The notes below the pieces were generated by a model. It was not told the origin of the DNA. It did not search any database and saw only the letters and a program-made list of their open reading frames with translations. Shown here in pieces: positions 22,702 through 64,000 of a stretch of 64,000 bases of DNA. Numbering within the stretch: the first letter of the stretch is position 1; each line of letters begins with the position of its first letter. This stretch comes from Candidatus Woesearchaeota archaeon (GTDB lineage Archaea; Nanobdellota; Nanobdellia; Woesearchaeales; UBA119): positions 2,546-66,545 of the forward strand of contig JASGME010000004.1 in NCBI GenBank assembly GCA_030156615.1, given 5' to 3'. The position numbers and the translations under genes were made by a program.

Positions 22702-22824
22702 TGCCGACTCGGGGCTTTGAACCCCGGACCTCCAGATACCCCAGAGAGCGCATAAGTCATAGCATTTAAGCTCATCACTCATACTTATGAGTCTGACGCT
22801 CTGACCAGGCTGAGCTAAGTCGGC
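22702..22824 (-). tRNA. tRNA-Met (elongator) or tRNA-Ile2, anticodon CAU, with 48-nt intron at 37/38 (intron 22738-22785)
   Basis: Manual fold: acceptor GCCGACT/AGTCGGC, anticodon stem TCAGA/TCTGG, loop CTCATA|A, T-arm CGGGG-TTCAAAG-CCCCG. Intron 5' end TATGAG pairs with anticodon loop CTCATA (BHB-like). Confidence 0.7.
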
Positions 22825-28710: not shown

Positions 28711-28738
28711 CTCTTTTCCCTCCTTTTTTCTTAGTTTT

Positions 28739-41071: not shown

Positions 41072-42421
41072 TCAAGATTTATCTAGATGATTTATAAGCT
41101 TCACTATCTCATTTTTCTTTTCTTCAAGGATATCTTCGCTATCCACTTCAATATTTATCCTAACATAAGGTTCTGTATTGCTCTTCCTGATGTTGAACCA
41201 AAAACCTTTACAATATACGCTCATTCCATCTATGTATTCAAAATCACATCTCTCAAATTCCTTTTTGATTCCATCAAAGACTTCATCAGGATTCTTAACC
41301 TTGATGTTAATTTCCTCGCTCTTGAAAAAATGATCGAATTCGTCTAAAATCTCTGATAATGGCTTCTTTTCAGATTTTATTATTTGAAGTAAAATAAGCA
41401 TTGAAAAAACAGGATCATCTATACAATAATTTCTTGAGAACATAATATGACCTGATAACTCACCGCCAAGCAATCCACCTTCTTTCATTAATTTTTCCTT
41501 GTAGAAAACATTACCAACCCTCATCTTGACAGGAACTCCTCTATATTTGAGAATAGTCTCTTCTACAACCTTTGAAAATCTAAGATCAAAATATATCTTC
41601 TCCCCAGGATTATTGAGAAGTTCGTGCTTTATGAACAATGAAAACAAAGCATCTAATGGAACAATTCTTCCTTTTTCATCTACTGCTATAATTCTGTCTC
41701 CATCGCCATCGAAAGCAACACCAAAATTTAGCTCATTCTTCTGGACAAATTCAGAAACAATCTTCAATGATGAACTTTCCATTGGATTAGGTCCATGACC
41801 CGGAAAATTTCCATCTATATCGCCGTTTAATATGACTGGTTTTATTCCAAGTTCTCTTGCTAATCTGTAAATCACCTTTGCCTGAGGTCCATTAGAAACA
41901 TCAACTGCAAAAGGCAGCGTTATTGCTTTAAACCCATTCAATATATGTTCACAATAGAACTCTATTCCGTCAGCTTTAACACTCTTCCCTCTTTTGTTTA
42001 ATGATTTGAAACTTTTTTCATTATATATCCTTTCAATCTCATCAATGCCTGTTTCATAACGAACAGGCAAGGCCTTTTTAAAACACATCTTGATTCCGTT
42101 GTATTCTTTAGGATTATGAGATGCAGTTATCATAATTCCAAAATCAGCATTCAATCTTATTGTTGAATAATAAAAAACAGGAGTAGGAATCACATCTAAT
42201 TCATATATATTAAGCCCTTGATTAATCAGAACCTCCTTAACAATTTTATAGATTTTTGGGGATGATAATCTAGCGTCCCGTGCAAGTGCAATAGTTAAAA
42301 AGTTTCTCTGAATGCAGAAGCTAGCTATGGCTTTTGCAAGGTCTTCTGCAATATCTTCATTGATATCTTCCTCCCAAATCCCCCTAATATCGTAAGTCTT
42401 GAAAATCTCCATATTAATCAA
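41072..42421 (-). CDS. phosphoglucomutase/phosphomannomutase (alpha-D-phosphohexomutase)
   Basis: Active-site TASHNP, metal-binding DGDGDR, sugar-binding GGELSGH. Confidence 0.8.
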   Translation of the reverse strand: MINMEIFKTYDIRGIWEEDINEDIAEDLAKAIASFCIQRNFLTIALARDARLSSPKIYKIVKEVLINQGLNIYELDVIPTPVFYYSTIRLNADFGIMITASHNPKEYNGIKMCFKKALPVRYETGIDEIERIYNEKSFKSLNKRGKSVKADGIEFYCEHILNGFKAITLPFAVDVSNGPQAKVIYRLARELGIKPVILNGDIDGNFPGHGPNPMESSSLKIVSEFVQKNELNFGVAFDGDGDRIIAVDEKGRIVPLDALFSLFIKHELLNNPGEKIYFDLRFSKVVEETILKYRGVPVKMRVGNVFYKEKLMKEGGLLGGELSGHIMFSRNYCIDDPVFSMLILLQIIKSEKKPLSEILDEFDHFFKSEEINIKVKNPDEVFDGIKKEFERCDFEYIDGMSVYCKGFWFNIRKSNTEPYVRINIEVDSEDILEEKKNEIVKLINHLDKS

Positions 42422-49640: not shown

Positions 49641-50735
49641 TTAATCCTTAGGTAGTTTTTTAATCTCTAAATAACCTTTATCAGTGAATATCTCAAATTC
49701 ATCATCTGAATTAAAGTTACATTCTTTAAAAATCTCTTTAGGAATCAAGAGATTATTACCTTTAAAATTTAAAGATGAGACAAAACTAGTTTTCTGATTG
49801 GCTTTAACAGGAGTTATCCCCAATTCTTTAAATAACTTCGATGTTGCAGTTCCATTTTTATTTTCCATAAAATTCTTACTTTCCTCAAACAAGAATCGAG
49901 CAATCTCATCAGCAACATCAATCTTTGTTGCCCTAGTTATTCCTTGAAGGCCTGGGCTAAGATTACCTTCAATAGCAACAGGTCCCTTTGCTCCATAAAG
50001 AATATCTATGGCGCATATCGAGGCACCCATAGATTTTGCAGCCTTTACTGCTACTTCCTTGGTCTTATCATCAATCAAGACAGGCTCACCTTCTCCTCCA
50101 GCATGAATATTTGCCCTTTTTTCTCCTATCTTCGCTCTTCTCATCATTGCTGCGACCACCTTCTTGCCTGCAACAATTACCCTCAAATCAGAATTTCCAC
50201 TCTCAACATATTCTTGGACTAAAAAAGGTTGTCTCAAAGCAGACAGGGTATCAAGAACAGAAGATGCAGATGCATAAGAATCAGCATAAAGCACTCCTTT
50301 CCCCTGCGTCCCATTAGGGATTTTAATTATTATAGGATAATTAGCATTTTTCTCTAAAAATTCTTTTGCCTTTTTTACATTTGAAAACAAATAACTTCTA
50401 GGTATGGGAACTTTTCCCAAAGCAAAAGCAATCATGTTCAGTATTTTATCATGACCAATCGTGAATCCTCTGCTTGTTATAGGTGTATAACATTCATCTT
50501 CAATTGCAGCAGCAATAGATTCTAATAGATTTGCATACCTAAAAGAACCTCTGATATAAACACAATCGTACCTCTCTAAAGCTTTTCCCTTATGCATAAT
50601 CGTCATCTTTCCCTGTTCAAGGCATTCCTCTATGTCTTTAAGATTAAAACTATCTACAGAATCAAAATAGTTTTTCATTGCAGCTTCAATCCATCTTGAG
50701 CTCAAACTCTGTTGACTTATTATACATCCTTTCAT
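49641..50735 (-). CDS. RimK-family ATP-grasp ligase (alpha-L-glutamate ligase-like) with about 70-aa C-terminal extension
   Basis: IIIKIPNGTQGKGV, LVQEYVESGNSDLRVIVAGKKVVAAMMRRAKIGEKRANIHAGGEGE, ICAIDIL all match the RimK pattern. Confidence 0.72.
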   Translation of the reverse strand: MKGCIISQQSLSSRWIEAAMKNYFDSVDSFNLKDIEECLEQGKMTIMHKGKALERYDCVYIRGSFRYANLLESIAAAIEDECYTPITSRGFTIGHDKILNMIAFALGKVPIPRSYLFSNVKKAKEFLEKNANYPIIIKIPNGTQGKGVLYADSYASASSVLDTLSALRQPFLVQEYVESGNSDLRVIVAGKKVVAAMMRRAKIGEKRANIHAGGEGEPVLIDDKTKEVAVKAAKSMGASICAIDILYGAKGPVAIEGNLSPGLQGITRATKIDVADEIARFLFEESKNFMENKNGTATSKLFKELGITPVKANQKTSFVSSLNFKGNNLLIPKEIFKECNFNSDDEFEIFTDKGYLEIKKLPKD

Positions 50736-50812
50736 TTAAAAACCCCCTTATTTACTAATTAGTTTTTTAATTATTATTTTCAATTTATTTTATCTTTTAA
50801 TCTTCATTTATT

Positions 50813-51160
50813 TTACTTCTTATTCGGATTTATTAAGAATCCTAGCTTTTTAAGAGCATTTCTTCCTAAGAGTACAGGATAACTTAATTCAGACCTGTCT
50901 GCAAGGGAAGCGTTAACCAAAATCGTCTTATCTTTTACAGTTAATTTAACCTTTACATAAGGCCTTCTTTGCTTTCCATTTGCAGACTTAATAAGCTTAA
51001 CCTTATGGATTGGCCCCAATTCAAGCTCTCTAGCCAATTCATACGATACTGAACAGCTGGAAGCACCTGTATCAACCCTTGCTTTAACCTTCTTTGATTT
51101 ATTCTTGCCAGCTATCTTAGCAATACAAACAAATCCTATTTCGTTATCCTCTGTCATCAT
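50813..51160 (-). CDS. retropepsin-like aspartic peptidase (DUF785 / COG4067, RimK-associated)
   Basis: VDTGASS catalytic D-T/S-G-A motif; 115 aa; immediately upstream of the RimK-like gene, a known pairing. Confidence 0.55.
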   Translation of the reverse strand: MMTEDNEIGFVCIAKIAGKNKSKKVKARVDTGASSCSVSYELARELELGPIHKVKLIKSANGKQRRPYVKVKLTVKDKTILVNASLADRSELSYPVLLGRNALKKLGFLINPNKK

Positions 51161-51384
51161 CTATCCTTGATAATTTTTAATGCAGTCTTGATGTCTCCTT
51201 CTCTTAAAGTCTTATTCCCAGAAACCTTACTAATCTCAATAGCTTTTCTTGATATCTTTTTTGCATATTCCTCAATCCAATCTCTAAGCTCCTCAACAGC
51301 CTCTTTTGAGACTTCACTAATTTCATCGCTATAAAATTCCCTTTTCAAAGGACTAAGAGGGATTCTATCTCTATTCTTTGGCAT
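51157..51384 (-). CDS. archaeal histone-fold protein (HMf-like)
   Basis: IPLSPLKREF..ISEVSKEAVEELRDWIEEYAKKISRKAIEISKVSGNKTLREGDIKTALKII aligns with the HMfB pattern (LPIAP..R.......RVS.DA...L...LEE....I...A...A.HAGRKT.K.EDI.LA). Confidence 0.55.
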   Translation of the reverse strand: MPKNRDRIPLSPLKREFYSDEISEVSKEAVEELRDWIEEYAKKISRKAIEISKVSGNKTLREGDIKTALKIIKDR

Positions 51385-51418
51385 ATAGAACTAAAAAACA
51401 GATTAATTTATATAACTT

Positions 51419-52150
51419 TTGCTCCTCTTTTTATTTATGTCCAATGAGAATCAAAAGAAGCAACCAGTAGATAACGATGTTATTGATGAAATAATAAAAA
51501 TCTTGGAAAAATCAATATTGAAATACCAGCTTCCGATAGTCACCCAAATACGAATAAAGACAAACAAACCATTTGTTGTATTAATCTCAACAATGCTGAG
51601 CTTAAGAACAAAAGACAAGATAACAAAAGAATCTACAATGAGACTTTTAGAGTTGGGAGATTCCCCAGAAAAGCTTTTAAAATTCTCTCAAGAAGATATT
51701 GAAAAAGCAATATACCCAGTTGGATTTTATAAAACTAAAGCAAAGAATATCCTTAAAACATCTCAAATCCTTAAAGAAAAGTACAACGGAGAAGTTCCAA
51801 AAGATATGAATGGACTTCTTGAACTCCCTGGAGTAGGAAGAAAAACAGCAAACCTTGTATTAGGAGAAGCTTTTAACATTCCATCAATCTGTGTAGACAC
51901 ACATGTACATAGAATAAGCAACAGACTCGGTTATGTTTCAACATCTAACCCAAAGGAAACTGAGTTTGCTCTCCGTGAAAAACTTCCTCAGAAATATTGG
52001 ATAAGGTACAATACACTTCTAGTAACCCTTGGTCAAAATATATGTCTCCCAAGAAGTCCTCTTTGTTCTAAATGTCCAATAGAAAAATATTGCCCAAAAA
52101 TTGGTGTTAAAAAAGCAGATAACAAAAATTCCTCTCTATCTATCATCTAA
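51419..52150 (+). CDS. nth: endonuclease III (HhH-GPD DNA glycosylase, 4Fe-4S)
   Basis: LPGVGRKTANLVL HhH-GPD, catalytic K/D region, C-terminal CLPRSPLCSKCPIEKYC Fe-S cluster loop. Confidence 0.85.
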   Translation: MLLFLFMSNENQKKQPVDNDVIDEIIKILEKSILKYQLPIVTQIRIKTNKPFVVLISTMLSLRTKDKITKESTMRLLELGDSPEKLLKFSQEDIEKAIYPVGFYKTKAKNILKTSQILKEKYNGEVPKDMNGLLELPGVGRKTANLVLGEAFNIPSICVDTHVHRISNRLGYVSTSNPKETEFALREKLPQKYWIRYNTLLVTLGQNICLPRSPLCSKCPIEKYCPKIGVKKADNKNSSLSII

Positions 52151-52227
52151 AGGTGCTGTTTTTCACCAGAGGAATTTTTGGGATTAAAAAGACAAGTCTT
52201 TATCTATCACCTAAAAGTGCTGTTTTT
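52135..52227 (+). repeat. direct repeat of about 29 nt (TCTaTCTATCAyCTAAArGTGCTGTTTTT), two copies 62 bp apart; copy 1 spans the nth stop codon
   Basis: Copies at 52135-52163 and 52197-52227 with about 27/29 identity; each ends in an oligo-T tract (archaeal terminator-like). Confidence 0.45.
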
Positions 52228-52291
52228 AGCTTCGTCTTTTAAATAACAAATACATTTAAATACCTTTTCAACATATTTCTTAAGAAGGAAG

Positions 52292-52888
52292 ATGGGCACG
52301 CGAGTTAAATCAGGGACAATTATTGGAGAAACTAAGTTAAGCATAAAACACAAAAATACCCCTTTTGATATGAATGCACTTGCTGCCTTTATGCATGATT
52401 GGCTCCTTGAAGAAGGATTTCATGATGATACCGGCTCAGACGATTTCATTGAAACATATTACTGGCAGGAATCAACACAAAAGGGCAAAAATGTGTGGTT
52501 TTGGTGGCGAACATTTGCAGGCCCCGAGAAAACCCAATCAACTTATTTTGAATATCATCTTGATTTAGAATGCCAAATCTTAGGATTAATTGATGTTGAA
52601 ACCGTAGTCAATGATAAGAAACTTAAGCTCAATAATGGAGAAGTAAACATAAACATAAAAGGATATATGGTTTTTGATCCAAACGATCTCCTGAAGACGC
52701 ATCCTTTTATAAAAACAATTTATAACTTCTTTCCAAAATCATGGCTCCATAAAGAGATAAATTTGCACAAAAAAACATCAAAAAAGCTAACATCAGATTT
52801 TTATAATGCAATAAAGGCTCATTTAGAACACCGCACCTTATCAGAGCAATTCCCGAATTTTGCTCCAAATAGAGGAATTGAGCATTGA
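52292..52888 (+). CDS. hypothetical protein
   Basis: 198-aa ORF; Trp-rich segment; no motif. Confidence 0.35.
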   Translation: MGTRVKSGTIIGETKLSIKHKNTPFDMNALAAFMHDWLLEEGFHDDTGSDDFIETYYWQESTQKGKNVWFWWRTFAGPEKTQSTYFEYHLDLECQILGLIDVETVVNDKKLKLNNGEVNINIKGYMVFDPNDLLKTHPFIKTIYNFFPKSWLHKEINLHKKTSKKLTSDFYNAIKAHLEHRTLSEQFPNFAPNRGIEH

Positions 52889-52922
52889 AATAACTAGTTT
52901 TTATAATTCTTTTTAAATAGAA

Positions 52923-54254
52923 TCATATAATTCTTGCAATAAGAGAATAACCACTTACACCAACAATCTCAACATTTATCCAATGCCCTATAGATTCATC
53001 TGAAACGATTCTTAACTTCTTTTCTATATCTTCATTTGGAATAATTAATTGCTTATACCAAAGATTCCTTGCCTTCATTGTTTTAAGTTTTCCTTTTTCG
53101 TCAATAAGTGCCTTGCCTTTCCATCCTACCCAATCTTTGTTTCTATCTTTAACGATTTCATTGAAAACATCTTTCAAAATCTTAGCCCTTTCTATTCCAA
53201 CCTCTGGCTTTAATTGTTCCATTGTCGCAGCCCTTGTTCCGGGCCTTGCCCAAAATCTAGAAATATTAATAACATCAGGCTTAATCTCCTTAATAAGCTC
53301 AACACTCTTTTTGAAATCTTCTTCAGTTTCATGTGGAAAACCAACAATAACATCTGTTGCTAAACTAACAGCCGGAATTTTATTCTTAATCCTTTTAAAA
53401 AGCGTTAGAAAATCATTAGCACTATACCCCCTATTCATCATCTTTAAAACCATATCACTGCCTGATTGAACAGGAATATGAAGAAATCTGAAAAAATGTT
53501 TAGAGTCTGCAATAACTTCATTAAAATCATCGACAATTCTAAGAAGATGATTTGGATTACTCATTCCAAGTCTTACCCAGAATTCTCCATTTAGCTCATC
53601 AATATCTTTCATTAGCTCAATAAAGCTTTCCCTTATATCAAAGCCGTAATTAGCCAAATCCTGAGAAGTTAGCCAGATTTCTTTAGCTCCTTCTCTTAGA
53701 AAGGTCTCAATCTGACATATGATATCTTTTTTTGGATAAGATTGTAAAACTCCCCTTGCCTGTTTTGTTTTACAATAGCTACAATTGCCCAAACAACCCT
53801 CTGCGATTGGCACTATTGAAATTGTCTTATTGAACATATTGTAATTTAATTTATGAAAATCTTTCTTAGTTCCATTCCAGAATACAGTTCTTTTTCCAGC
53901 AATGATTTCATCAACAGATCTAACAATATCGTCAAGATTCCTTGTTCCGATAATACTAACATCTTTTAATCTATTATCATTTACTAGCCCCTTTTCTGCA
54001 TCAACAACACACCCTGCAGCAATAACCTTTTTTTTGCTCTCTTTTGCATTCCTCAAAGCCCTAAAGAGTTTCGTTTCAGCATTGTTTTTAACAGTGCAGG
54101 AGTTAATTATAACAACATCTGAATTTTCATAATTAGAGATTTCATATCCTGCTTCCTCGAGTCTTCTTTTCATATACAAAGAATCAGCCTGATTTGCAGA
54201 GCATCCATAAGTCTTTATGAATACATTCGCCTTCTTCTTGATAATATTCTTCAT
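52923..54254 (-). CDS. MiaB-family radical-SAM methylthiotransferase (archaeal e-MtaB/CDKAL1-like, ms2t6A)
   Basis: UPF0004 N-terminal YGCSANQADS, radical-SAM CLGNCSYC, C-terminal TRAM region; 443 aa. Confidence 0.8.
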   Translation of the reverse strand: MKNIIKKKANVFIKTYGCSANQADSLYMKRRLEEAGYEISNYENSDVVIINSCTVKNNAETKLFRALRNAKESKKKVIAAGCVVDAEKGLVNDNRLKDVSIIGTRNLDDIVRSVDEIIAGKRTVFWNGTKKDFHKLNYNMFNKTISIVPIAEGCLGNCSYCKTKQARGVLQSYPKKDIICQIETFLREGAKEIWLTSQDLANYGFDIRESFIELMKDIDELNGEFWVRLGMSNPNHLLRIVDDFNEVIADSKHFFRFLHIPVQSGSDMVLKMMNRGYSANDFLTLFKRIKNKIPAVSLATDVIVGFPHETEEDFKKSVELIKEIKPDVINISRFWARPGTRAATMEQLKPEVGIERAKILKDVFNEIVKDRNKDWVGWKGKALIDEKGKLKTMKARNLWYKQLIIPNEDIEKKLRIVSDESIGHWINVEIVGVSGYSLIARII

Positions 54255-54412
54255 AATTTTTAGGAGTGAGGCTTAATTTTAAAAGCCTTTTGCGACTCAT
54301 ATTTAAATTCTATTGAAGTTTGTTGTTTTTATTCAATCTTTAACCATCTTATTGAAATAATTCAAAGATTTTCTTAACAATTTTTTATATCTTCTATATT
54401 TTTCTAAAATTA

Positions 54413-54940
54413 TTGATGCAAATGAATCTCAAAAACATTATTCAGGATATAATGGGGATTATTATTGCCCTTTCAATCTCAGCCCTTACACTTGCAAGTA
54501 TAGTTGCAGGCGTATATTCTACTGGAATAATAAATGATAGCGATAGCTTAACCAACTTTTTCTCATTGCAAACCCCGATAGAAGAAGCTCCTCAAGACAT
54601 TATTAAAGAAAAAGATATTAAGATAAGGCACAATTCTGTCATCATAAATGTTAAGAATGCATCAATTGTTGAGATTGAACAGCCATACTTAAATCTATTA
54701 CTTCTCCCTAAAGGCAGTCATGCTCTCCTGATAGATCCATCATCACTAGATCAACTATCCTTTGATAGCTTAAAAGAAGGAGACATAGTATACTATGAAT
54801 CAGGGAATAATTCAACAGGATTTTCAAGAATCTTTGAAATACACACTGAAAATAATATCACTTATTTTATAGATGCATTTACAAAAAAAAGCATTAAGGA
54901 AGATGAAATAATTGGTGTAGTTGCGGCCTTCACTTATTGA
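54413..54940 (+). CDS. membrane-anchored hypothetical protein
   Basis: N-terminal signal-anchor, then beta-rich soluble part; no firm family motif. Confidence 0.35.
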   Translation: MMQMNLKNIIQDIMGIIIALSISALTLASIVAGVYSTGIINDSDSLTNFFSLQTPIEEAPQDIIKEKDIKIRHNSVIINVKNASIVEIEQPYLNLLLLPKGSHALLIDPSSLDQLSFDSLKEGDIVYYESGNNSTGFSRIFEIHTENNITYFIDAFTKKSIKEDEIIGVVAAFTY

Positions 54941-54989
54941 TTATCTCTTTCAATATCATTCAATCAGTTCGATCCTTTTTCCTATTAGC

Positions 54990-55742
54990 TTATATTACAT
55001 TTAGCAATGAGTAAACCATCCTGTCTCCTGCATGCTCTAGAACAGAAACATTCTCACCGCTAATGATAATACAATCATCTCTAAAGAAAATTCTATTACC
55101 AGAAGTTTCGTTTATTTCATACCTGATTACAGAAACAAAAGTCTCTGTTCTATTTTCAACATTAATCATATCGCCTTCCGAAGCATTGTAGCAATCAATG
55201 ACCATTGCAGCTTTATCATCGTAACCAGCTGGAATATAAGTTACCCCAACAACACTTGGAATTCCTAATATGCCCGTATTGTTCTTTCTAGGATTTAGAA
55301 TCTTTGAAATTTCCATGGCAGATAATCCAACACTGCTTGGCATAAAAGGATCTGTAGTTATAAAAACAACATCTGAGCTTAGCAACCTATCTTTGATTTT
55401 GCTTTCATTTATAATCTCAATATATTCAACCTCTTCAGGATTATACCTGACCATCAATTCATAAGACTGATTTCCAACCTTGACTAGAGTAGACCAACCA
55501 ACAAGCTCTTTCTTAAAAATGAAATCATTATATTTTATTATCCCTGGACTAGAATGATTGTCTTTTTCTCCTTTTAAATGAAAATCAATTACCCCAAGCT
55601 GTTGTAAAAGCAACCATAAAAAAGCAACAGCAATCATTACAATGATAATATTGACAGCAAAAATCTTTATCCTGCCTTTTTCTTTTCTTTTATGTATCGC
55701 CATATTAATCACTAAAAAAGTTTTCTTCGTTAATAACTCCAA
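54990..55742 (-). CDS. membrane-anchored hypothetical protein
   Basis: Basic N-terminus (KRKEKGR) then a single TM; overlaps the upstream gene by 38 nt. Confidence 0.35.
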   Translation of the reverse strand: MELLTKKTFLVINMAIHKRKEKGRIKIFAVNIIIVMIAVAFLWLLLQQLGVIDFHLKGEKDNHSSPGIIKYNDFIFKKELVGWSTLVKVGNQSYELMVRYNPEEVEYIEIINESKIKDRLLSSDVVFITTDPFMPSSVGLSAMEISKILNPRKNNTGILGIPSVVGVTYIPAGYDDKAAMVIDCYNASEGDMINVENRTETFVSVIRYEINETSGNRIFFRDDCIIISGENVSVLEHAGDRMVYSLLNVI

Positions 55743-56352
55743 GCCTTACATATTCAACCAATTCAAAGAATTGAATAACATCATAAGGAGTATTTGAATC
55801 TATTTCAATTTCATAGCATTGCTCTCCAATCTTATTTAAAACACTTTCGTTTCCCTCATTAAAGATTACTACAGGCGACATGGTTGAGTTGATGCAGTTA
55901 ACCTGAGCTAAACTTCCACCATCCACGAATCCCTGAATTATTTTAATGGGTTTTATCCCACCGAGATTTTTTTCAATCTCAAGCCTGCCATAGGAAACAT
56001 AACCAGTGAGATCAGAATTTTCATGAGTAGAAACAAGCAATATAGGTGTTTTTTGAATAATATTAAAAAGTTCCTTTGAAAGATTAAAAGTCTTTATCTC
56101 TGATGGGAGAAAATTAAATCCGATATCTTTTCTGTTGTATTTAAGAATCCATCCATTGTTTGTCATTGAAAAACTATAATCCCCAAACACTATTTCATTC
56201 TCAGGATTTCCTTGAGAATTCATTATGGCAAATTGGATTGTACTACCAACAAAAAGAAAAGCCACGAGAAGACTCCAGATAAGCATATTTCTCTTTCTTC
56301 TCTTCTCTTTTTTAATATTTTTCAATTCTTTTTTAGCCATTTGTAGTTCCAC
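55705..56352 (-). CDS. membrane-anchored hypothetical protein
   Basis: Basic N-terminus (KKEKRRKR) then a single TM. Confidence 0.35.
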   Translation of the reverse strand: MELQMAKKELKNIKKEKRRKRNMLIWSLLVAFLFVGSTIQFAIMNSQGNPENEIVFGDYSFSMTNNGWILKYNRKDIGFNFLPSEIKTFNLSKELFNIIQKTPILLVSTHENSDLTGYVSYGRLEIEKNLGGIKPIKIIQGFVDGGSLAQVNCINSTMSPVVIFNEGNESVLNKIGEQCYEIEIDSNTPYDVIQFFELVEYVRLGVINEENFFSD

Positions 56353-56371
56353 TTTCTGCTTGTAAAAGAAA

Positions 56372-56446
56372 TGGGCCCGCGGAGATTTGAACTCCGGACC
56401 TCTCGATTATCAGTCGAGCGCTCCAACCTGGCTAAGCTACGGGCCC
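56372..56446 (-). tRNA. tRNA-Ile (GAU)
   Basis: Manual fold: acceptor GGGCCCG/CGGGCCC, anticodon stem CTCGA/TCGAG, loop CTGATAA, T-loop TTCAAAT; 75 nt. Confidence 0.85.
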
Positions 56447-56613
56447 CTCGCCTTAAGACTCTGCTGAGACTTCTTGTTTAATTAATAAAGTTTTCGATTG
56501 GTCTCTCAAACAAGGAGTTTAACATATCTTTATTGAAAAGATGTAAGAATCAAAAAGAGAATTGCTTATTAAACTCGAAATCTTTAATAATCTTTTCGTA
56601 TTCTTTCATGAGA

Positions 56614-57705
56614 ATGGACAAAATTCCTATTGCCTTTCCATATTGTTCAGACGAGCTAATTGAATCCGTTGGAGAAACCATCAAATCAGGAAGATGGGCA
56701 AGAGGCAGGCATGCAGAAGAATTTGAGAAAGAATTTGCGTCTTACATAGGAAAAAAGTCTGCTTTTGCTGTTAATAGCGGGACAACTGCATTAAGACTTG
56801 CATTAAGATCTTTAAATCTTAAGAAAAAAACAAAAGTAATCGTTCCAGACATGAGTTTTATTGCTACTGCTCAATCTGTTATATTAGAAGGTCTTGACCC
56901 TGTTTTTTTAGATGTAAATTATGATGGAAATCTTGATCCGACTTCTCTTGAAAAATTTCTTTCTAATTCATATCAAGAAGTTGGTGCAGTAATGCTTGTT
57001 CATCTTCATGGTAAAGCAGCTCAAGTTGTTGAAATTTCAGAAATCTGCAGGAAATATAATGTTCCTCTGATTGAAGATTGCTCTCAAGCTACAGGCGTAG
57101 AAATCAAAAGAAAAAAAGCAGGCTCTTTTGGAGATTTATCAGTATTCAGTCTTTATGCTACAAAAACATTAGCAAGCGGAGAAGGCGGCATCATTGCTTT
57201 TGATAATCAAGAATTAAGAGATTTTTTTTCTGCTTCTTCTGACAACGGTTTTTATAAAGGAAAACTAATCAATTCGCTAGGAGATAGCCTTCGATTTAGT
57301 GATATTCATGCAACTATTGCTTTATTCCATCTAAAGAATCTTGATGAATTAAATGCAAAGAGAATTATAATTGCAAAGCAATATCATGATAAGTTTAATT
57401 CGCTTAATAATATAATCCTGCCTTCTTTAGAAAATAATGTCTTCCATCATTATAACATTGTAATTAAAAAAGAATACAAATTTTCTTTTCAAGAGGCATA
57501 TTCTTATTTCAATAACTCAGGCATTGAGATAAGACAATATTATCCATACACTTTATCTTCAATCTTTGAGAGAAAGCCTCAAAAAACAGCATCTTATCTG
57601 TCAAAGAACTCGTTTTGCATCCCAATCTTTCCTTCACTGAACACTGATCAAATTAATAAAGTTAGCGAAAACACATACAATTTTTTGAAAGGTTTGAAAA
57701 AATGA
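56614..57705 (+). CDS. DegT/DnrJ/EryC1-family PLP-dependent sugar aminotransferase
   Basis: SGTTALRLAL, catalytic Lys region SLYATKTLASGEGG, family-typical length. I chose start MDKIPIAF (ORF-track start 56533). Confidence 0.75.
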   Translation: MDKIPIAFPYCSDELIESVGETIKSGRWARGRHAEEFEKEFASYIGKKSAFAVNSGTTALRLALRSLNLKKKTKVIVPDMSFIATAQSVILEGLDPVFLDVNYDGNLDPTSLEKFLSNSYQEVGAVMLVHLHGKAAQVVEISEICRKYNVPLIEDCSQATGVEIKRKKAGSFGDLSVFSLYATKTLASGEGGIIAFDNQELRDFFSASSDNGFYKGKLINSLGDSLRFSDIHATIALFHLKNLDELNAKRIIIAKQYHDKFNSLNNIILPSLENNVFHHYNIVIKKEYKFSFQEAYSYFNNSGIEIRQYYPYTLSSIFERKPQKTASYLSKNSFCIPIFPSLNTDQINKVSENTYNFLKGLKK

Positions 57706-59051
57706 ACATATTAGTATTGAATCTTCCATTTCCTAGAAAGATTATAAGGCGATATAGTTGTTCTTATTACTCTAATGGTTTTTTATATCTGCCTCAGGAA
57801 CTTTTAAGGCTTGCAACAATAATAAAACAAAATAATACAGGCAATACTTTCTTTATAGACGCAATTGCAGAGAATAGATCTGTTAAGGATATAATTAAAT
57901 TTGTAAAAAACAATCATATAGAAATTATTTTTACATTGCTCTCGCTTGATTTCATAGATAATGATTTAAAAATAGTAAATAAAATAAAACAATCAACATC
58001 AGTTCCTATCGTTTCAATAAGCTATTTGGCATCTTTATTTAGAAATCAATTCCAGCATTTAGATGTAGTTCTTGATAAATTCTTTGAGCAAAAGACCTAT
58101 TTTGCATTAAAGAATTCTTCATCTATTGATGATTTGATTAATTCATTAAAAGAAACAGAAGGAAAAACCTTTGATTTCAATCCAAATTTAATTAATCAAG
58201 TTGATAGAAGTTTTATAAATCCCAAGAATTATCAGGAAGTCTTCTGTAGAGGTAAAACTGCTTTTCTTTATTTCGGATTTGGCTGTCCTTATAAATGCAA
58301 CTATTGCATCTCTTCATATGATTATAAAAATTATACCTTGAGAAAAAAGGAATTTATTTTTGATGAATTAGAACAACTTTACAAAGAAGGATATAAAAAC
58401 ATAAGGGTGTTAGATGATAATTCAACAATTAATAAAGAATTCCTAAAAGAATTAGATATTTTTCTAAAAGAGAAAAAGATTTTTCTAAATTTTTATGGCC
58501 TATCAAGAATATCTCTCATTGATAAAGAAATGGTTGAAATTCTTAAAGATGTCGGCTTTAAGAGAATATATTTAGGGTTAGAAACGCTTAACCAAAAAAT
58601 GCAAGAATATTACGAAAAAAACATAGAAGTTAATTTAACTATTCTAAGAGAAAAAATAAGACTTTTAAAATCCAATGGAATTGAAACAGGCCTATGGATG
58701 CTTTTCCATCCATTAAAGCAGACAAAAAATGAATTGTATTCATCGATAAAAGAATTATCTTATTTAAAAGCAGATCTCGTTAATCTTAGCATTCTTGTGC
58801 CTTATCCAGGGACAAAATTATTTGATCTTGAAAAAGAAAACATTAATTACTCTTTAAATCCATTCATATCAGAATTCAAAACGAATTACAATTGTGATAA
58901 AATAGAGAGGATGTTCTATGTTCGTTATTATTTAAGACCTTTAAATGCCTTAAGAATAATGAAATTTGTTTTAAAATATCCTATAAAAAGTATTAATCTC
59001 TTTTTTTCATTATTTAAAAATCCAATAGATCCAAGAAAAGATTTTATATGA
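57702..59051 (+). CDS. B12-binding-domain radical SAM enzyme (class B)
   Basis: CPYKCNYC (Cx3Cx2C) after an N-terminal Rossmann-like B12-binding region; start overlaps the degT stop (ATGA). Confidence 0.7.
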   Translation: MNILVLNLPFPRKIIRRYSCSYYSNGFLYLPQELLRLATIIKQNNTGNTFFIDAIAENRSVKDIIKFVKNNHIEIIFTLLSLDFIDNDLKIVNKIKQSTSVPIVSISYLASLFRNQFQHLDVVLDKFFEQKTYFALKNSSSIDDLINSLKETEGKTFDFNPNLINQVDRSFINPKNYQEVFCRGKTAFLYFGFGCPYKCNYCISSYDYKNYTLRKKEFIFDELEQLYKEGYKNIRVLDDNSTINKEFLKELDIFLKEKKIFLNFYGLSRISLIDKEMVEILKDVGFKRIYLGLETLNQKMQEYYEKNIEVNLTILREKIRLLKSNGIETGLWMLFHPLKQTKNELYSSIKELSYLKADLVNLSILVPYPGTKLFDLEKENINYSLNPFISEFKTNYNCDKIERMFYVRYYLRPLNALRIMKFVLKYPIKSINLFFSLFKNPIDPRKDFI

Positions 59052-59061
59052 GTGAATTAAA

Positions 59062-60714
59062 ATGGAATTTGGACCAATTTATAACTTTCTTTCAACAAAA
59101 ATCTGGCCAATTTTCTTTGAATATGGAAAATTCTTTGCTTATCTTACACTTATTCTTACGATAATCTCAATTATATTGTCTATCTTAGTAATAAAAGAAA
59201 GATTCATTAATTCAAATAAATCAAAGAGAAGAAAAGACAACAAATCCTATTTCATGATTCTTTCCCTACTTTTAATAATCTCCTCTTTTGTTTATTGGTC
59301 AGTCGCATCTGAGAGAGTCTTTTTTTCATATGATGAGACTGATTTGAAGTTTTATATCGCTTCAATTAGACTTGCTCAAGAAGGAGAGTTTCGTCCATCT
59401 GGAACCCCCTTAGGGGGTTTTTCTTACATTTTGATCTTTCTCTTTAGAATTTTTCCATCATTGACAGATCCTTTTAACCTTTTCTACTTTATAATTTGGA
59501 TGAACTATTTTGTTCTACTTTTCATGATTTTTTTGATTTTTGACATGTTTTATTTAAAATCAAAAAACAAGTTAATTCCGATTTTTCTTACTTTGACTAT
59601 TCTATTTTATACACCCCTAATTGAGAGTATTTGGTATTACAAGCTTTATTATACAATTTGTCTCGCTGGACTTTTCTTTACATATTATGTATTCATCAGA
59701 ATGAACGATTTACAAAAGAATAATAAACTAACTAAGTTAGGAAAATTTTACTATCCGCTGCTGATTTTAATCCTTCTTTTCTTAACTAGTCATAGCCGTC
59801 CAGAATTATTAATTCTCTCTTTTCCAATACTTATTTATTCTATCCCTTTTCTCATTAAAGAATTTAAAAGTTGCAGATGGCAAGGAAGATTATATTATAT
59901 TATTTTAATATCTTTTTTTATCTTGATTCATATAGATGTTCTTTCATGGTATATTTTATCAAATAGCCAAAGATTGAATGATGGAACACTTCAATTCAAC
60001 AGGCCTGTAATAAGCAGAGATATTATGAATGTCTTTGAATGGCTTTCATACTCCTTCATATTTGTTTTACTTTTTTCTAAGAAAACAGCAATATTTGGTC
60101 TCTTGTACATCCCTTTTTTCACTTATATTAGATTCTCTCTTATGTGGGATTGGCTTCTTTATCCAACATATTTTGTCTTTGCATTATTTTTAATTCTTTA
60201 TAATTTTCCAATATTTACTAACAAAAAGACAACATCTTTAGCAATATCAATAGTTTTATTCCTTTCAATGTTTGCATTATCCCCCTTTTATCCTTTTGAA
60301 AGAAATTTGTTCTATTATCCTCTTCAATATTCTGAAAAAGATGATGATGGCTCTCAGATTTTGTATTTAAAGGAATATTTAAAGGATAAAGAATATATAA
60401 TTTATGAATCTTGGCCAGATATCTTTTCGACTTACATCTTTTCAGATTCTCCTTCTGAATTCAAGGAATTCCGTAAAGAATTAAGTAGCAATATGAGCAT
60501 TTTTTTTAGAGATGGATATCATCTCAATCTATCTTCTTCATTTTTTTTAGAACAAGAAAAGCCTGTTTTATTCGCTTATAATCGAGATATAACGGATTAT
60601 ACGCTCTATCTCAACGATTCAAATGTAACTTTTAGCAAACTTATAGATAAACCATTTGCTTACAATCTATATGAGCTTCATTTTCACTTTTATGATGAAA
60701 ATATTACAAAATAA
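59062..60714 (+). CDS. polytopic membrane protein, putative GT-C-type glycosyltransferase
   Basis: At least 11 TM helices with an aromatic-rich C-terminal soluble domain; sits in a sugar-modification cluster. Confidence 0.35.
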   Translation: MEFGPIYNFLSTKIWPIFFEYGKFFAYLTLILTIISIILSILVIKERFINSNKSKRRKDNKSYFMILSLLLIISSFVYWSVASERVFFSYDETDLKFYIASIRLAQEGEFRPSGTPLGGFSYILIFLFRIFPSLTDPFNLFYFIIWMNYFVLLFMIFLIFDMFYLKSKNKLIPIFLTLTILFYTPLIESIWYYKLYYTICLAGLFFTYYVFIRMNDLQKNNKLTKLGKFYYPLLILILLFLTSHSRPELLILSFPILIYSIPFLIKEFKSCRWQGRLYYIILISFFILIHIDVLSWYILSNSQRLNDGTLQFNRPVISRDIMNVFEWLSYSFIFVLLFSKKTAIFGLLYIPFFTYIRFSLMWDWLLYPTYFVFALFLILYNFPIFTNKKTTSLAISIVLFLSMFALSPFYPFERNLFYYPLQYSEKDDDGSQILYLKEYLKDKEYIIYESWPDIFSTYIFSDSPSEFKEFRKELSSNMSIFFRDGYHLNLSSSFFLEQEKPVLFAYNRDITDYTLYLNDSNVTFSKLIDKPFAYNLYELHFHFYDENITK

Positions 60715-60753
60715 AATTATGAATTCCTTAAATTATATTCATTATTTAGCAAA

Positions 60754-62490
60754 TTAGACTAAGACTTCCTTCATATAAAATACATCAAATACTTCATTCT
60801 CATAGATTTTTTCTCCATTGTTTCTCTCTATAAGCCAATTCTCTAATGTAGATAGAAATTCTTTCTGCTTTGAAGGGACATCTTCCCCTATTCTTTTTTT
60901 TCTCAACCAGCATATATTATTGTATTGCTCTAAAACCTCCTTTGCTTCTTCTTGATCTGATATTGTGAAGGAAAGTGGTAAAATGCTAACATTAGTTTCA
61001 GCAATAAGAGAATGAATCCCTCCTGTAGAGTAGAAAAGAACAAAAGAATCATCTGGACATTCTTTTGCCGCATCCTCGATTAATTCTCCATTTCCCTCCT
61101 GATGTTGAATCTGAAAAAGAAAGAAAATTGTTGCAATGCAAAGTAATAAAGAAATTACAGTTTTAATTATTTTAATATATCCTTTACTATTTAAGCTAAA
61201 AAAATCGACCCAAACAATCCCAATAGGAATAAAAAAGAAACTTAATGAAGTTATAATAAATCTGAAGTCAATATTCAATGGCTCCAAAAAAGAATATGTT
61301 ATGAAAATCTGGAATGAAACTAAAATAAGAGCTATCGAAATGAAGAAAGAATCTCTATTTTTCATTTTTCTTCTTTTTGCATTGGAAAAATAAAGAAATG
61401 TTTCATATATCAAAAATCCTAATCCTCCAAAAACAACTAGCTTAAATATAATATTTGAATTTAAGAGAGTCTTAAACAATTCAGGAATCCAGAAATTACT
61501 CAATCTATAGCCATATTGAGATATAGAATAATGATTATCGTGATATCCATTCAATAAAAAGAATATTATTCCGCCAAAATAAAGTGCATAAAAAACAAAT
61601 TTTCGTATATAATCTTTATTCTTGAATAAACGATTTACGATGAAATCAGCAACAAATAAACTTAAAAGCATAACAGGAAAGAAATTGATACCTATCATTC
61701 CTTTTGTTCTTATGTTCGAAAAACTGAAAAGGATTAAAAGAAAAAAAGCTGAAATCGCCCCATTCAAAAGATAATCTCTTAATGAAATTTTAATCTTGTT
61801 TTTGCTCAGATAAATGCTTATAAGAAGTGGAACAACGAAAATTAATTCTATCCTCGTGAATATAAGAAGCCATGAAAGAAGGACTAGAAACAAAGGTAAT
61901 TTTTTACTCTTCTCTTTATCATCTTCTTTTGATTCAACTATATAGAGCAACAATCCGAAAGATAGGAAAAAAAGCAAATTTTCCGCAAAATATTCAAGGA
62001 TATAAACATTCTTAAATGGAATTAGGTAATAAAGCAAAGAAAAAGTAAAACAAAGTATTCTATTTTTAGAGAATTGTCTTAAGATCAGATATATAAAAAG
62101 TGTGGTAAATATGTTTAAGATATTTACAAGAATTCTTTCTCCCAATTCATCACCAAATATCTCTCTTGCACCTATGAGAAACAAAGGATAGGTTAATTCA
62201 TGATCTCCCAAAAACATTTCGTTTTCACAAATTCCACCACTTCGTTCAATTCCTTCCTCCCCTTCGATGATGCAGCTAGCTTGAGAAGCATGAGCATAAT
62301 ACTCCGAATCAATATTAACAGTATTATATGTCCAAGGAAACCAAATTGTTTGAATAACAACAAGCAAAGAAATAAAGATAAGATCCATAGAATCTGTTTT
62401 TCTCTTCTTACGAATGATTTCATAAACTAAAGTACATCCTACTGAAACTATCAGCAAAATATAAAACCACACAAAAAAAATAAATGTCAT
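60754..62490 (-). CDS. polytopic membrane protein with C-terminal soluble domain, putative GT-C-type glycosyltransferase
   Basis: At least 11 TM helices plus a roughly 120-aa C-terminal domain. Confidence 0.35.
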   Translation of the reverse strand: MTFIFFVWFYILLIVSVGCTLVYEIIRKKRKTDSMDLIFISLLVVIQTIWFPWTYNTVNIDSEYYAHASQASCIIEGEEGIERSGGICENEMFLGDHELTYPLFLIGAREIFGDELGERILVNILNIFTTLFIYLILRQFSKNRILCFTFSLLYYLIPFKNVYILEYFAENLLFFLSFGLLLYIVESKEDDKEKSKKLPLFLVLLSWLLIFTRIELIFVVPLLISIYLSKNKIKISLRDYLLNGAISAFFLLILFSFSNIRTKGMIGINFFPVMLLSLFVADFIVNRLFKNKDYIRKFVFYALYFGGIIFFLLNGYHDNHYSISQYGYRLSNFWIPELFKTLLNSNIIFKLVVFGGLGFLIYETFLYFSNAKRRKMKNRDSFFISIALILVSFQIFITYSFLEPLNIDFRFIITSLSFFFIPIGIVWVDFFSLNSKGYIKIIKTVISLLLCIATIFFLFQIQHQEGNGELIEDAAKECPDDSFVLFYSTGGIHSLIAETNVSILPLSFTISDQEEAKEVLEQYNNICWLRKKRIGEDVPSKQKEFLSTLENWLIERNNGEKIYENEVFDVFYMKEVLV

Positions 62491-62515
62491 TTTGTCGTTT
62501 TTTTCTTATAACTTC

Positions 62516-63961
62516 TTATTCATATATATAATCATATCCATAAATATGAAAATAGGTTAAGAGATATTTGAAACTCAAACCTTTTTTAATGCCCATAAAA
62601 ACATATTTGAACAGTCTTCCGAAATATTTGAAATTATCTCTCAATATTCTCTTTCTGAGATGTGGCAGGAAGGTTTTCATATATGCTTTTATCTGGTATC
62701 TTTCAACCTCCTTTGCAGAAAGATTTTTATTATTCACTACAGCATCAAAAGTTATGTTATCAGCCTTATTTGCTCTATTGAAATCTATCGTGCCTCCATA
62801 TCTTTTTACCAATTCTTCTGATTCTTTCGTAAAAGGTTTAAATATAAAGAAAGCGCTACGCTCAGCATCAATTTTTCCAGCCATCTCAATTGTCTTATTT
62901 ATAGTTTCCTTTGATTCCGCAGGAGCTCCTAATATATAATAAGCTGTCATTTTTATTCCATATTTCTTCAACAATCCAACAACTTCCCAAATTTTCTCCT
63001 CAGGAAGCCCCTTTCTCATCACCTTATTCCTTATAAATTTATCACCACTTTCAATTCCTATTCTAACCATGTTGCATCCTGATGAAGCGAGCATTCTTAT
63101 TTTTTCCTCATCAAGATTATCTACCCTCGAAAATATTGAATACTTGCTATTTTTCGGATCAACAAGTCTTTTGTATTCTTCGGTAAATTCCTTCAGCCAT
63201 TCTTTGTTAAGTGCAGGGATCTGATCAAAGAGTTGCATTAATCTTAATCCTCTTTTTCTATACTTTTGCCAATCGTATGCAAGCTCTTCTGCATATCTCT
63301 TGGGCGACATTACTCTATAATAATTTCCCAAAACACAATTCCTAAGTTCTTTTGCCTCGCAGAATGAGCAATTATATATACAACCTCTGGTGCCAATCTG
63401 GTAAAGCATTCCCAAAAAATAAAGGTAATCATCTAAGTGTTCCCATAAATCCCAGTCCAGATATGGTAATTCATCAAGTTTAGAATAAAAAGATCCTGGA
63501 TTTGAGATTAAATGGTCTTTATTGTAATACCAAAGACCTTTTATTTTATCTAATTCTAATCCTTTTTCCTGTTTGTTCAAGAAATCTATAAGGCTATCTT
63601 CTGCATCGCCAACAAAAACAAAATCAACATATGGCAATTCTACCAGCTCTTCTGGGTGCGTTGAAGCATGATATCCTCCATAAATAATCTTTATTTTGCT
63701 ATCTATTCTTTTAACTTCCTGAGAAATCATTTTAATATGATTTAAATAAAGGCTATTAACCGAGAAACCGATAAAATCAGGTTTCTCTCGTTTTATATGC
63801 TCATTAAGCTTTTTTCTCCAATCTCTGCGGTGAAATGTGAAGTCTAAAATATCTGCTTTATGATTACTCCATTCATTAACACAACTAGCCAAAACAGTAA
63901 TTGCAATATCAAGGGCACTATAATCCCCACCTAATGTAGGATTGATAAAACTAATTTTCAT
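62516..63961 (-). CDS. B12-binding-domain radical SAM enzyme (class B), second copy
   Basis: CIYNCSFC Cx3Cx2C motif; N-terminal B12-binding-like domain. Confidence 0.7.
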   Translation of the reverse strand: MKISFINPTLGGDYSALDIAITVLASCVNEWSNHKADILDFTFHRRDWRKKLNEHIKREKPDFIGFSVNSLYLNHIKMISQEVKRIDSKIKIIYGGYHASTHPEELVELPYVDFVFVGDAEDSLIDFLNKQEKGLELDKIKGLWYYNKDHLISNPGSFYSKLDELPYLDWDLWEHLDDYLYFLGMLYQIGTRGCIYNCSFCEAKELRNCVLGNYYRVMSPKRYAEELAYDWQKYRKRGLRLMQLFDQIPALNKEWLKEFTEEYKRLVDPKNSKYSIFSRVDNLDEEKIRMLASSGCNMVRIGIESGDKFIRNKVMRKGLPEEKIWEVVGLLKKYGIKMTAYYILGAPAESKETINKTIEMAGKIDAERSAFFIFKPFTKESEELVKRYGGTIDFNRANKADNITFDAVVNNKNLSAKEVERYQIKAYMKTFLPHLRKRILRDNFKYFGRLFKYVFMGIKKGLSFKYLLTYFHIYGYDYIYE

Positions 63962-64000
63962 TATTCTTTAAAAAAACGAAAGTTTTATATTAATGTTTCT

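Follow-up and report, generated by a model that had tools for sequence, protein, structure and literature searches.

The 64,000-nucleotide stretch of DNA analysed here (the window) comes from a Candidatus Woesearchaeota archaeon and covers positions 2,546 to 66,545 of contig JASGME010000004.1 (assembly GCA_030156615.1). Near its right end lie five genes: a sugar aminotransferase of the DegT family, a radical S-adenosylmethionine (rSAM) enzyme termed rSAM-A, two polytopic membrane proteins termed TM-A and TM-B that resemble glycosyltransferases (GTs) of the GT-C class, and a second rSAM enzyme, rSAM-B (Table 1). A listing of the open reading frames (ORFs) of the window confirmed all five. The genes are real, because ORFs of 365-578 codons at 29% G+C far exceed chance and each has homologues. 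The start of rSAM-A overlaps the stop of DegT by ATGA, as an earlier reading of the sequence alone (the initial annotation) had reported, and TM-A follows after 10 nucleotides (nt). TM-A and TM-B are convergent with a 39-nt gap, and TM-B and rSAM-B are co-directional with a 25-nt gap. To the left of the bounding tRNA-Ile are genes for small unrelated single-pass proteins. The extent first proposed, 56533-63961, does hold the five genes, but it is only the edge of an rSAM-dense supercluster of about 25 kb. Position 63961 is an effect of the window edge and not the end of the cluster, which runs on in another contig, L001.

Table 1. Features of the module in the window and of its continuation in L001, a contig that shares 99.3% identity with the window across 11.5 kb (window position = 73962 - L001 position; extension genes are given in order; aa, amino acids)
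Feature	Position	Strand	Basis or remark
tRNA-Ile(GAT)	56372..56446	-	ARAGORN and Rfam; left module boundary
DegT/DnrJ/EryC1 pyridoxal phosphate (PLP) sugar aminotransferase	56608..57705 (ORF 56533-57705)	+	Pfam PF01041
rSAM-A, rSAM enzyme with class-B-like N-terminal Rossmann domain	57702..59051	+	Pfam Radical_SAM and CxxxCxxC
TM-A, polytopic GT-C-like membrane protein	59062..60714	+	AlphaFold2 model and Foldseek
TM-B, second polytopic GT-C-like membrane protein, different family	60754..62490	-	AlphaFold2 model and Foldseek
rSAM-B, rSAM enzyme with B12-binding domain, class-B architecture	62516..63961	-	Pfam B12-binding and Radical_SAM
Intergenic, first 39 nt of the 52-nt divergent spacer toward the HxsD-like gene	63962..64000	.	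Comparison with L001
HxsD-like gene, 207 aa	L001 extension		First after spacer; HxsD 30.8 bits, cut-off 50
Small paralogue, 115 aa	L001 extension		Second after spacer
HxsB, 469 aa	L001:7551-8960		TIGR03978, 392.9 bits, cut-off 370
HxsC-like rSAM, 286 aa	L001 extension		After HxsB
rSAM fusion, 556 aa	L001 extension		After the 286-aa HxsC-like rSAM
Peptidase_A24/Arc_PepC membrane protein (prepilin-peptidase-like), 382 aa	L001 extension
128-aa protein	L001 extension		After the Peptidase_A24/Arc_PepC protein
HxsC4-like rSAM, 328 aa	L001 extension
326-aa protein	L001 extension		Between the 328-aa HxsC4-like and 290-aa HxsC-like rSAMs
HxsC-like rSAM, 290 aa	L001 extension
rSAM of the "455" family, 454 aa	L001 extension		At contig end

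DegT matches the Pfam family DegT_DnrJ_EryC1 with 272.5 bits (E 7.6e-81; cut-off 19.8) over profile positions 5-357 of 360. Lysine 186 (365-aa numbering), within SLYATKTL, aligns with the TK of the closest solved structure, 7b0d (YATK186TL versus YPTKNL; E 8e-45), and ArnB is also among the solved relatives. A PLP-binding lysine separates the aminotransferases of this family from its His-containing dehydratase members, and its presence, together with the domain score, bears out the sugar aminotransferase named in the initial annotation. The ORF opens at TTG 56533. As public gene calls and orthologues have lengths of 360-365 aa, translation probably starts at ATG 56608 instead and yields 365 aa. 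DegT reaches none of the NCBIfam equivalogs PseC (200 bits, cut-off 423.5), LegC (170, 420), ArnB (142, 631), DesI (131, 650) and WecE. Its orthologues are 44-59% identical, and rSAM-A is the next gene in every case.

rSAM-A contains the Pfam Radical_SAM domain (66.9 bits; cut-off 29.5) with the cluster motif CPYKCNYC from residue 195 (C195-x3-C199-x2-C202). No Pfam B12-binding (PF02310) match was found in it at E<=0.1. Its N-terminal part of 170 residues is homologous to that of the rSAM-B family; in hhalign, residues 31-369 align with residues 18-378, N-domain included, at a probability of 97.9%. The nearest PDB structure is AprD4 (6fd2; E 2.8e-8, 36.5 bits), a similarity at superfamily level. 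AprD4-type enzymes have a Rossmann-like domain yet do not bind cobalamin (2026 review, PMC12931638), and rSAM-A may bind none either. The leading NCBIfam matches of rSAM-A are BchE, HpnR, PhpK, HpnJ, and AprD4, all far under cut-off. Orthologues with 43-62% identity occur in four related loci (L007, L020, L021, and L022), each directly 3' of DegT. PADLOC matches to PDC-M51A and pVip were set aside as generic rSAM similarity.

rSAM-B contains both the Pfam B12-binding domain (65.2 bits; cut-off 32.1) and Radical_SAM (67.2 bits; cut-off 29.5), with the cluster motif CIYNCSFC from residue 194 (C194/C198/C201). The initial description of two class-B (B12) rSAM enzymes therefore holds as architecture, but the Pfam B12 domain is present in rSAM-B only, and sequence does not establish that both are cobalamin-dependent methylases. 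The NCBIfam matches of rSAM-B are HpnJ (2e-29; 102.8 bits against 577.6), BchE (3e-28), ApyD, and others, scoring 70-103 bits against cut-offs of 250-750. The top rSAM matches mix non-methylating (HpnJ, BchE, AprD4) with methylating enzymes (HpnR, PhpK, QCMT), and neither rSAM enzyme is HemN-like. The closest solved structures of rSAM-B are QCMT (9ccb, 1.5e-10), AprD4, and TsrM; 9CCB is the MCR (methyl-coenzyme M reductase) glutamine C-methyltransferase (PMC12931638). C-methylation, which the initial annotation had proposed, is not borne out. Among the families, rSAM-B comes nearest to HpnJ and BchE, which do not methylate; methylases follow closely, all scores are far below cut-off, and the best solved relative of rSAM-A is a cobalamin-free dehydratase. 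The rSAM-B family itself is tight, at about 481 aa, with 140 matches at E<1e-30 and 45-61% identity. It is found in Woesearchaeota, Nanoarchaeota, Omnitrophota, Elusimicrobiota, Planctomycetes, and Bacteroidota.

Both membrane proteins have the GT-C architecture of about 11-13 or more helices and an extracytoplasmic soluble domain. TM-A has 13 transmembrane-like helices and a beta-rich soluble domain at its C-terminus, and TM-B has 14 such helices and a C-terminal soluble domain; the C-terminal beta-containing domains are about 110-140 aa long. AlphaFold2 models built from small alignments reached a pLDDT of 71.5 and a pTM of 0.78 for TM-A, and 57.7 and 0.56 for TM-B. In a Foldseek comparison with the PDB, the top 16 matches of TM-A are all GT-C enzymes (PglB 7e-4, STT3, ALG12, DPY19, ArnT, AftD, Pmt1/2, ALG6, AftB), as are the top eight of TM-B (ArnT 3.7e-5, STT3, DPY19, Pmt4, PimE). 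The probabilities are 0.99-1.0 for most of these matches. Below them, a few lower-ranked GT-C entries aside, the probability drops to 0.05-0.2. The models thus support a resemblance of TM-A and TM-B to GT-C glycosyltransferases and to nothing else. They agree with the initial annotation, which had recognized a GT-C-like protein of at least 11 helices and a second, convergent one.

Sequence comparison places the two proteins in separate small families. Searched as single sequences and as family profiles, neither protein has a match above threshold in Pfam, NCBIfam, PADLOC, or PDB. The TM-A sequence has none at all in Pfam, NCBIfam, or PDB, and for TM-B, too, the Pfam and PDB searches are empty. 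The sole curated-family match of TM-B is NCBIfam NF047440 (the LA_3751/2 putative Leptospira GT), at 1.4e-5 and below cut-off. Members of the two families give sub-threshold matches to PMT_2 (0.0017; 0.2) and Glyco_transf_22 (0.0083), and no non-glycosyltransferase family is matched. An exhaustive phmmer search of 1.84 billion representative proteins with TM-A and TM-B concatenated (1128 aa) found 15 relatives, all unnamed hypothetical proteins. They split cleanly by query half into nine TM-A and six TM-B family members. A word-index homologue search found only near-identical copies and one 45% relative. A protein from a Candidatus Woesearchaeota metagenome-assembled genome shares 98% identity with TM-B, and genome-contig and metagenome-contig collections scanned with TM-B alignments gave no matches. 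Mutual homology of TM-A and TM-B was not detectable by BLASTP (E 0.12) or hhalign (18%, confined to a shared T-R-x-E motif). Two TM-B relatives stand in a row at L004:645-3360, with 45% identity for the first and 41% for the second, a paralogue, over its visible N-terminal part; the TM-B family therefore duplicates in tandem.

Each family has its own conserved motifs. The TM-A family shares VFF-x-Y-[DEN]-[ED]-T-[DH]-x-K-[YF], in which E92 is invariant, and T/S-R-P-E (R246-P-E248). The TM-B family shares S-E (E63), G-x-H-E-L-T-Y-P (H97-E-L-T-Y-P), A-E-N-L, and T-R213-I-E215. In both proteins, which have an extra N-terminal helix ahead of the canonical first helix, the acidic motif comes after helix 2. 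Because the loop before this helix is rich in Lys/Arg and presumably cytoplasmic, the motif is placed outside, like loop 1 of GT-C enzymes, and the conserved acidic motifs would lie in a GT-C-type active site. When the TM-B family was aligned by hhalign with PMT_2-type proteins from the same position in related loci, the probability was 86.7% (E 4e-6). The TM-A family matched them weakly (26.7%), with the register kept around the R-x-E motif. In L013 and L015, PMT_2 proteins are in the position next to rSAM-B.

The five genes stay together, with their order shuffled, in other uncultured archaeal lineages. L007 contains contiguous but reordered orthologues of all five, with identities of 57% (rSAM-B), 48% (rSAM-A), 47% (DegT), 27% (TM-B), and 25% (TM-A). 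In the closest related lineage (L020), tRNA-Ile, DegT, rSAM-A, and TM-A are in the same order as in the window. DegT and rSAM-A face TM-B in L021, and L022 contains TM-A, a 254-aa gene, DegT, and rSAM-A. On a 3.4-kb contig (L016/L017), TM-A-family and TM-B-family genes are adjacent and convergent as in the window, and L004 has an rSAM-B fragment followed by the TM-B homologue. This conserved synteny excludes a chance juxtaposition. Since the linkage survives rearrangement at 25-60% protein identity, the genes probably form one functional unit. The most complete distant copy of the supercluster is L007/L018, contig CAYUJZ010000001.1, at 38% G+C. Its record is labelled "uncultured Methanosarcinales archaeon", a taxonomy label that is unconfirmed; if the binning is right, the island is common to DPANN and Methanosarcinales.

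A mobile island anchored at tRNA-Ile was considered and rejected. L020, a relative at about 60% identity, has the same tRNA 5' of DegT, which therefore reflects ordinary synteny. G+C is 0.26-0.29 over 58001-62000 (rSAM-A, TM-A, and TM-B), while the window as a whole has 0.32. Coding rich in Ile/Phe/Lys/Asn is the probable reason, and the tRNA-Ile synteny in L020 argues against a recent insertion of the low-G+C stretch.

The genomic contexts of rSAM-B tie it to glycan or lipid-linked-sugar metabolism rather than to peptides. In an Omnitrophota genome, its locus contains Wzx, four GT2 and two GT4 enzymes, a GFO/IDH/MocA oxidoreductase, an acetyltransferase, and further rSAM enzymes. In an Elusimicrobiota genome, the block consists of a flavin adenine dinucleotide (FAD) oxidoreductase, a B12-rSAM, a GT2, and rSAM-B. 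On a Nanoarchaeota contig, a bona fide PMT_2 gene precedes rSAM-B with a gap of 2 nt, and two DUF2079 proteins, another PMT_2, and a carbamoyltransferase are alongside. In Woesearchaeota, the protein directly downstream of the rSAM-B orthologue of L013 passes Pfam PMT_2 (34.4 bits against 26.1), and in L012 the orthologue has DegT, additional B12-rSAMs, and a type IV pilus-like locus in its vicinity. Bacterial and archaeal loci alike combine rSAM-B with a second B12-rSAM, about 455 aa long. DegT, the GT-C resemblance, and rSAM-B orthologues within polysaccharide or GT-C loci of three other phyla together uphold the glycan-related cluster that had been proposed.

Some of these loci have further features. 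A four-gene block common to Omnitrophota and Elusimicrobiota (L008:7321-11446 and L014:6470-11443; 46-50% identity) consists of a small GT2 (about 240 aa), a CrtI/amine-oxidase-type FAD enzyme, a 460-aa B12-rSAM, and the rSAM-B orthologue. The family of the 460-aa enzyme also occurs with rSAM-B in archaea. Beside the rSAM-B orthologue at L013:3290-8185 are a corrinoid protein (B12-binding_2 and B12-binding), a URO-D/MtaA-like methyltransferase, and a RACo-type corrinoid activator, which suggests a dedicated methyl-cobalamin supply line for the B12-rSAMs. At L012:1-9859 (Woesearchaeota GCA_016935095.1), the orthologue adjoins a 1418-aa domainless protein, five small proteins, T2SSE, and T2SSF. 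This context fits, without proving, modification of a pilin or surface filament.

On this evidence, we lean slightly toward a conserved module for extracytoplasmic glycosylation with Arn-like logic, in which an amino sugar on a lipid carrier is transferred by GT-C enzymes. The observations are the domains of the proteins, the resemblance of TM-A and TM-B to the GT-C fold, the conserved gene linkage, and the presence of rSAM-B orthologues with glycan genes. The folds, the conserved linkage, and the rSAM-B contexts support the glycan reading, and they do not support C-methylation specifically. The substrates, the chemistry of both rSAM enzymes, the lipid carrier, and the acceptor would then be as follows. 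DegT would make an amino sugar by transaminating a keto-sugar, with a nucleotide-activated 4-keto or 3-keto hexose as the likeliest substrate. rSAM-A, translationally coupled to DegT, and the cobalamin-type rSAM-B would carry out radical tailoring of this sugar in its nucleotide- or polyprenyl-phosphate-linked form. The tailoring could be C-methylation, deoxygenation/deamination, or rearrangement. Enzymes encoded outside the window would load the sugar onto dolichyl or polyprenyl phosphate and flip it, and TM-A and TM-B would transfer the sugar or sugars to acceptors at the outer membrane face. The acceptor would probably be a surface protein of pilin or S-layer type or a growing glycan. No S-layer or pilin acceptor, as suggested initially, was identified.

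Beyond base 64000, the cluster extends for about 10 kb across the 52-nt divergent spacer (L001:1-9948, equivalent to window 64014-73961), and nine rSAM genes are counted within about 20 kb. The extension has six further rSAM genes, among them HxsB and HxsC-like paralogues, and thus relatives of bacterial HXS genes. The HXS system (HxsA-D) defends against phages, and in it a secreted protein with HxS repeats is matured by HxsB and HxsC (PMC13128918). HXS systems were described in 2026 and are found to 99.7% in Pseudomonadota (PMC13128918). HxsB is an equivalog match, and the best of the four HxsC-like paralogues scores 112.8 bits for HxsC against a cut-off of 267.9. No ORF with HxS repeats (>=3 HxS within 30 residues, six frames) was found in L001 1-11000 or window 50001-64000. 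In L007/L018, the extra flanking genes encode a peptidase-like protein, an HxsD-like protein, HxsB (46%), an HxsC4-like rSAM (57%), the 556-aa fusion (37%), and the 455-aa rSAM. HxsB and HxsD are absent from L012, L013, L015, and the bacterial loci, and neither has a match in L020-L022. The module is thus often, but not always, accompanied by the Hxs-like set. With HxsB/C/D-like maturases and a prepilin-peptidase-like gene in the larger cluster, the final product may be a multiply modified surface glycoprotein.

Several findings weigh against the glycosylation module. Neither the window nor the L001 extension contains a nucleotidyltransferase, 4,6-dehydratase, polyprenyl-phosphate GT2, or flippase gene, and the bacterial GT2 and FAD-oxidoreductase had no tblastn match in the window. 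Sequence comparison assigns no known reaction to rSAM-A or rSAM-B. Both membrane proteins miss the thresholds of all curated GT families (PMT_2/GT39/GT83, STT3/GT66, ALG/GT22, DUF2079, and others), so that they are termed GT-C-like from comparisons of fold and from weak profile similarity. With TM-scores of just 0.34-0.43 to GT-C structures, the comparison speaks for a fold class and no more, and confidence in the TM-B model is low. The rSAM-B orthologue of L010 is beside HxsD, HxsB, and HxsC alone, with no GT-C or DegT in view, and the adjoining HxsB, HxsC-like, and HxsD-like genes belong to a protein-maturation system (PMC13128918).

These last points lead to the main alternative, in which the island matures a ribosomally synthesized surface or secreted protein. 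The rSAM enzymes, rSAM-A and rSAM-B among them, would modify amino-acid side chains, as QCMT, PoyC, and HxsB/HxsC do, the prepilin-peptidase-like protein would cleave the signal peptide, and the GT-C proteins would glycosylate the same protein. The Hxs-like maturation genes make a protein-modification component of the supercluster possible. HxsB passes its cut-off near rSAM-B, four HxsC-like rSAMs, an HxsD-like gene, and the Peptidase_A24/Arc_PepC protein are directly beside rSAM-B, and the same set recurs on the distant L007/L018 contig. The pairing of rSAM-B in L010 with Hxs genes only, a protein methyltransferase as its best solved relative, and the protein effector matured by bacterial HXS enzymes (PMC13128918) agree with this. 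However, neither an HxS-repeat ORF nor another obvious precursor was found in L001 1-11000, rSAM-A is always coupled to a sugar aminotransferase, and the rSAM-B orthologues of bacteria and Nanoarchaeota are in glycan loci without Hxs genes. The archaeal loci without HxsB and HxsD point the same way. Protein maturation is a fairly unlikely account of the five genes, although it may be partly true for the island as a whole. In a combined view, which we consider unlikely, the module would supply the glycan part of one conserved system, an archaeal relative of HXS with about 16-20 genes in about 25 kb. Besides HxsB and HxsC-like and HxsD-like proteins, it would include the prepilin-peptidase-like protease, DegT, three rSAMs of the B12 type, and the two private GT-C enzymes. 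Such a system would build a heavily radical-modified, glycosylated envelope component that blocks virus entry or attaches this host-dependent DPANN cell to its partner.

Two other readings are less likely than protein maturation. The B12-type rSAM enzymes could act on an isoprenoid lipid or a lipid-bound head group, with the polytopic proteins handling head groups; the models are methylation by HpnP/HpnR, cyclitol formation by HpnJ, and the archaeal ring and tetraether synthases. HpnJ is the top NCBIfam match of rSAM-B, the ladderane-lipid B12-rSAM and HpnR are also matched, and the bacterial rSAM-B with its partner B12-rSAM adjoins a CrtI/amine-oxidase-type FAD enzyme and a small GT2, recalling HpnI/HpnJ. 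Those matches are 5-10 times below cut-offs and no better than matches to unrelated class-B enzymes, however. The Omnitrophota locus is a typical Wzx-type polysaccharide cluster, and the combination of DegT and GT-C points to a transferred sugar. We consider a lipid-only function very unlikely. If, on the other hand, TM-A and TM-B were transporters, Wzy-type polymerases, or structural proteins, their proximity would not be informative on glycan transfer. The unmet family thresholds, the empty PDB sequence searches, the poor TM-B model, and TM-scores <0.45 leave room for this, but every high-probability fold match is a GT-C enzyme, and transporters appear only at a probability <=0.1. The weak sequence matches all agree (PMT_2, Glyco_transf_22, LA_3751/2 GT), the positional equivalents in L013/L015 are bona fide PMT_2 proteins, and the conserved acidic motif follows an in-to-out helix as GT-C loop 1 does. 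We consider this alternative highly improbable.

The glycosylation module that we favour shares parts with several known systems. In the Arn pathway (PmrHFIJKLM, with ArnB, the GT2 ArnC, and the GT83 ArnT), a DegT aminotransferase is likewise combined with a GT-C enzyme that moves an amino sugar off polyprenyl-phosphate outside. The solved structures related to DegT include ArnB, and ArnT leads the fold matches of TM-B. However, no equivalents of ArnA, ArnC, or ArnD are in view, the DegT score for ArnB is far below cut-off, and the host is an archaeon without lipid A. Two GT-C proteins of new families occur here together with two rSAM enzymes, which Arn lacks. TM-A and TM-B share with PMT_2/GT39/GT83 enzymes the polytopic form with 13-14 helices, the acidic loop-1 motif, and the C-terminal outside domain, and TM-B adds the profile match of 86.7%. 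They differ in scoring under the PMT_2 threshold, in having <10 known members each, and in the extra N-terminal helix. TfpW is a pilin-modifying GT-C enzyme of this type.

Radical tailoring of aminoglycosides and deoxysugars offers a second comparison. GenK, GenD1, and Fms7 are class-B C-methyltransferases, AprD4 is a diol dehydratase, and DesI/DesII form an aminotransferase-rSAM pair (enzyme roles in part from PMC12931638). The direct coupling of an aminotransferase to an rSAM enzyme with a Rossmann-type N-domain is similar here, and AprD4 is the solved enzyme nearest to rSAM-A. The similarity is at superfamily level only, with no family membership found. Moreover, membrane GT-C proteins are present here instead of soluble GT-B enzymes, and there is no antibiotic-type cluster. 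In the HXS system, the bacterial order HxsD-HxsB-HxsC is matched by the extension (HxsD-like, small protein, HxsB, HxsC-like), and HxsB passes the equivalog cut-off. No HxsA or HxS-repeat effector was found here, however; HxsC and HxsD are sub-cut-off, there are four HxsC-like paralogues, and the genes are in an archaeal host, joined to a larger island with B12-rSAMs, DegT, and GT-C proteins. As in the hopanoid set HpnI (GT2)/HpnK/HpnJ, bacterial rSAM-B orthologues are beside a small GT2, and HpnJ leads the rSAM-B matches, but with a score far below its cut-off, no hopanoid genes, and an archaeal host.

The component types and the DegT/GT-C logic are thus already known. The two GT-C families are new, and so are the invariable pairing of DegT with rSAM-A and the combination with a B12-rSAM family that crosses domains, within an archaeal island that is dense in rSAM genes and HXS-like. 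Literature searches turned up no account of the cluster or its families. DPANN archaea combine very small genomes with a life spent attached to other cells. Their surface chemistry is therefore central to their biology, and it is almost unknown. The two new GT-C families are available for testing, and new radical sugar chemistry might come to light from the fixed DegT-rSAM pair. The rSAM-B family, uncharacterised B12-rSAMs of about 481 aa, spans DPANN, Omnitrophota, Elusimicrobiota, and other bacteria and is consistently glycan-linked. Through the HxsB/C/D-like neighbours, an anti-phage system of bacteria would reach into Archaea, where its genetic setting differs greatly.

Elsewhere, the gene content marks the window as archaeal, with a thermosome, a presumed intron-containing tRNA, and other housekeeping genes. 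At 41072-42421 (-), there is a phosphoglucomutase/phosphomannomutase with all four PGM_PMM domains, the only sugar-phosphate enzyme among the scanned window ORFs. A 735-aa protein of CARDB/Ig-like/fn3 repeats (20352-22559, -) is likely a surface protein, and at 27103-30679 (-), a T2SSE-type ATPase is beside a 646-aa protein with a weak sub-threshold TPR match. The products of these two regions are candidate surface structures and possible targets of glycosylation. Rfam reports a tRNA over 123 nt at 22702-22824 (-) that ARAGORN does not report, presumably an intron-containing archaeal tRNA. At 49641-51160 (-), inspection by eye suggests an ATP-grasp-like, perhaps RimK-like, ORF of 364 aa, followed by a 115-aa ORF with a DTGAS retropepsin-like motif.

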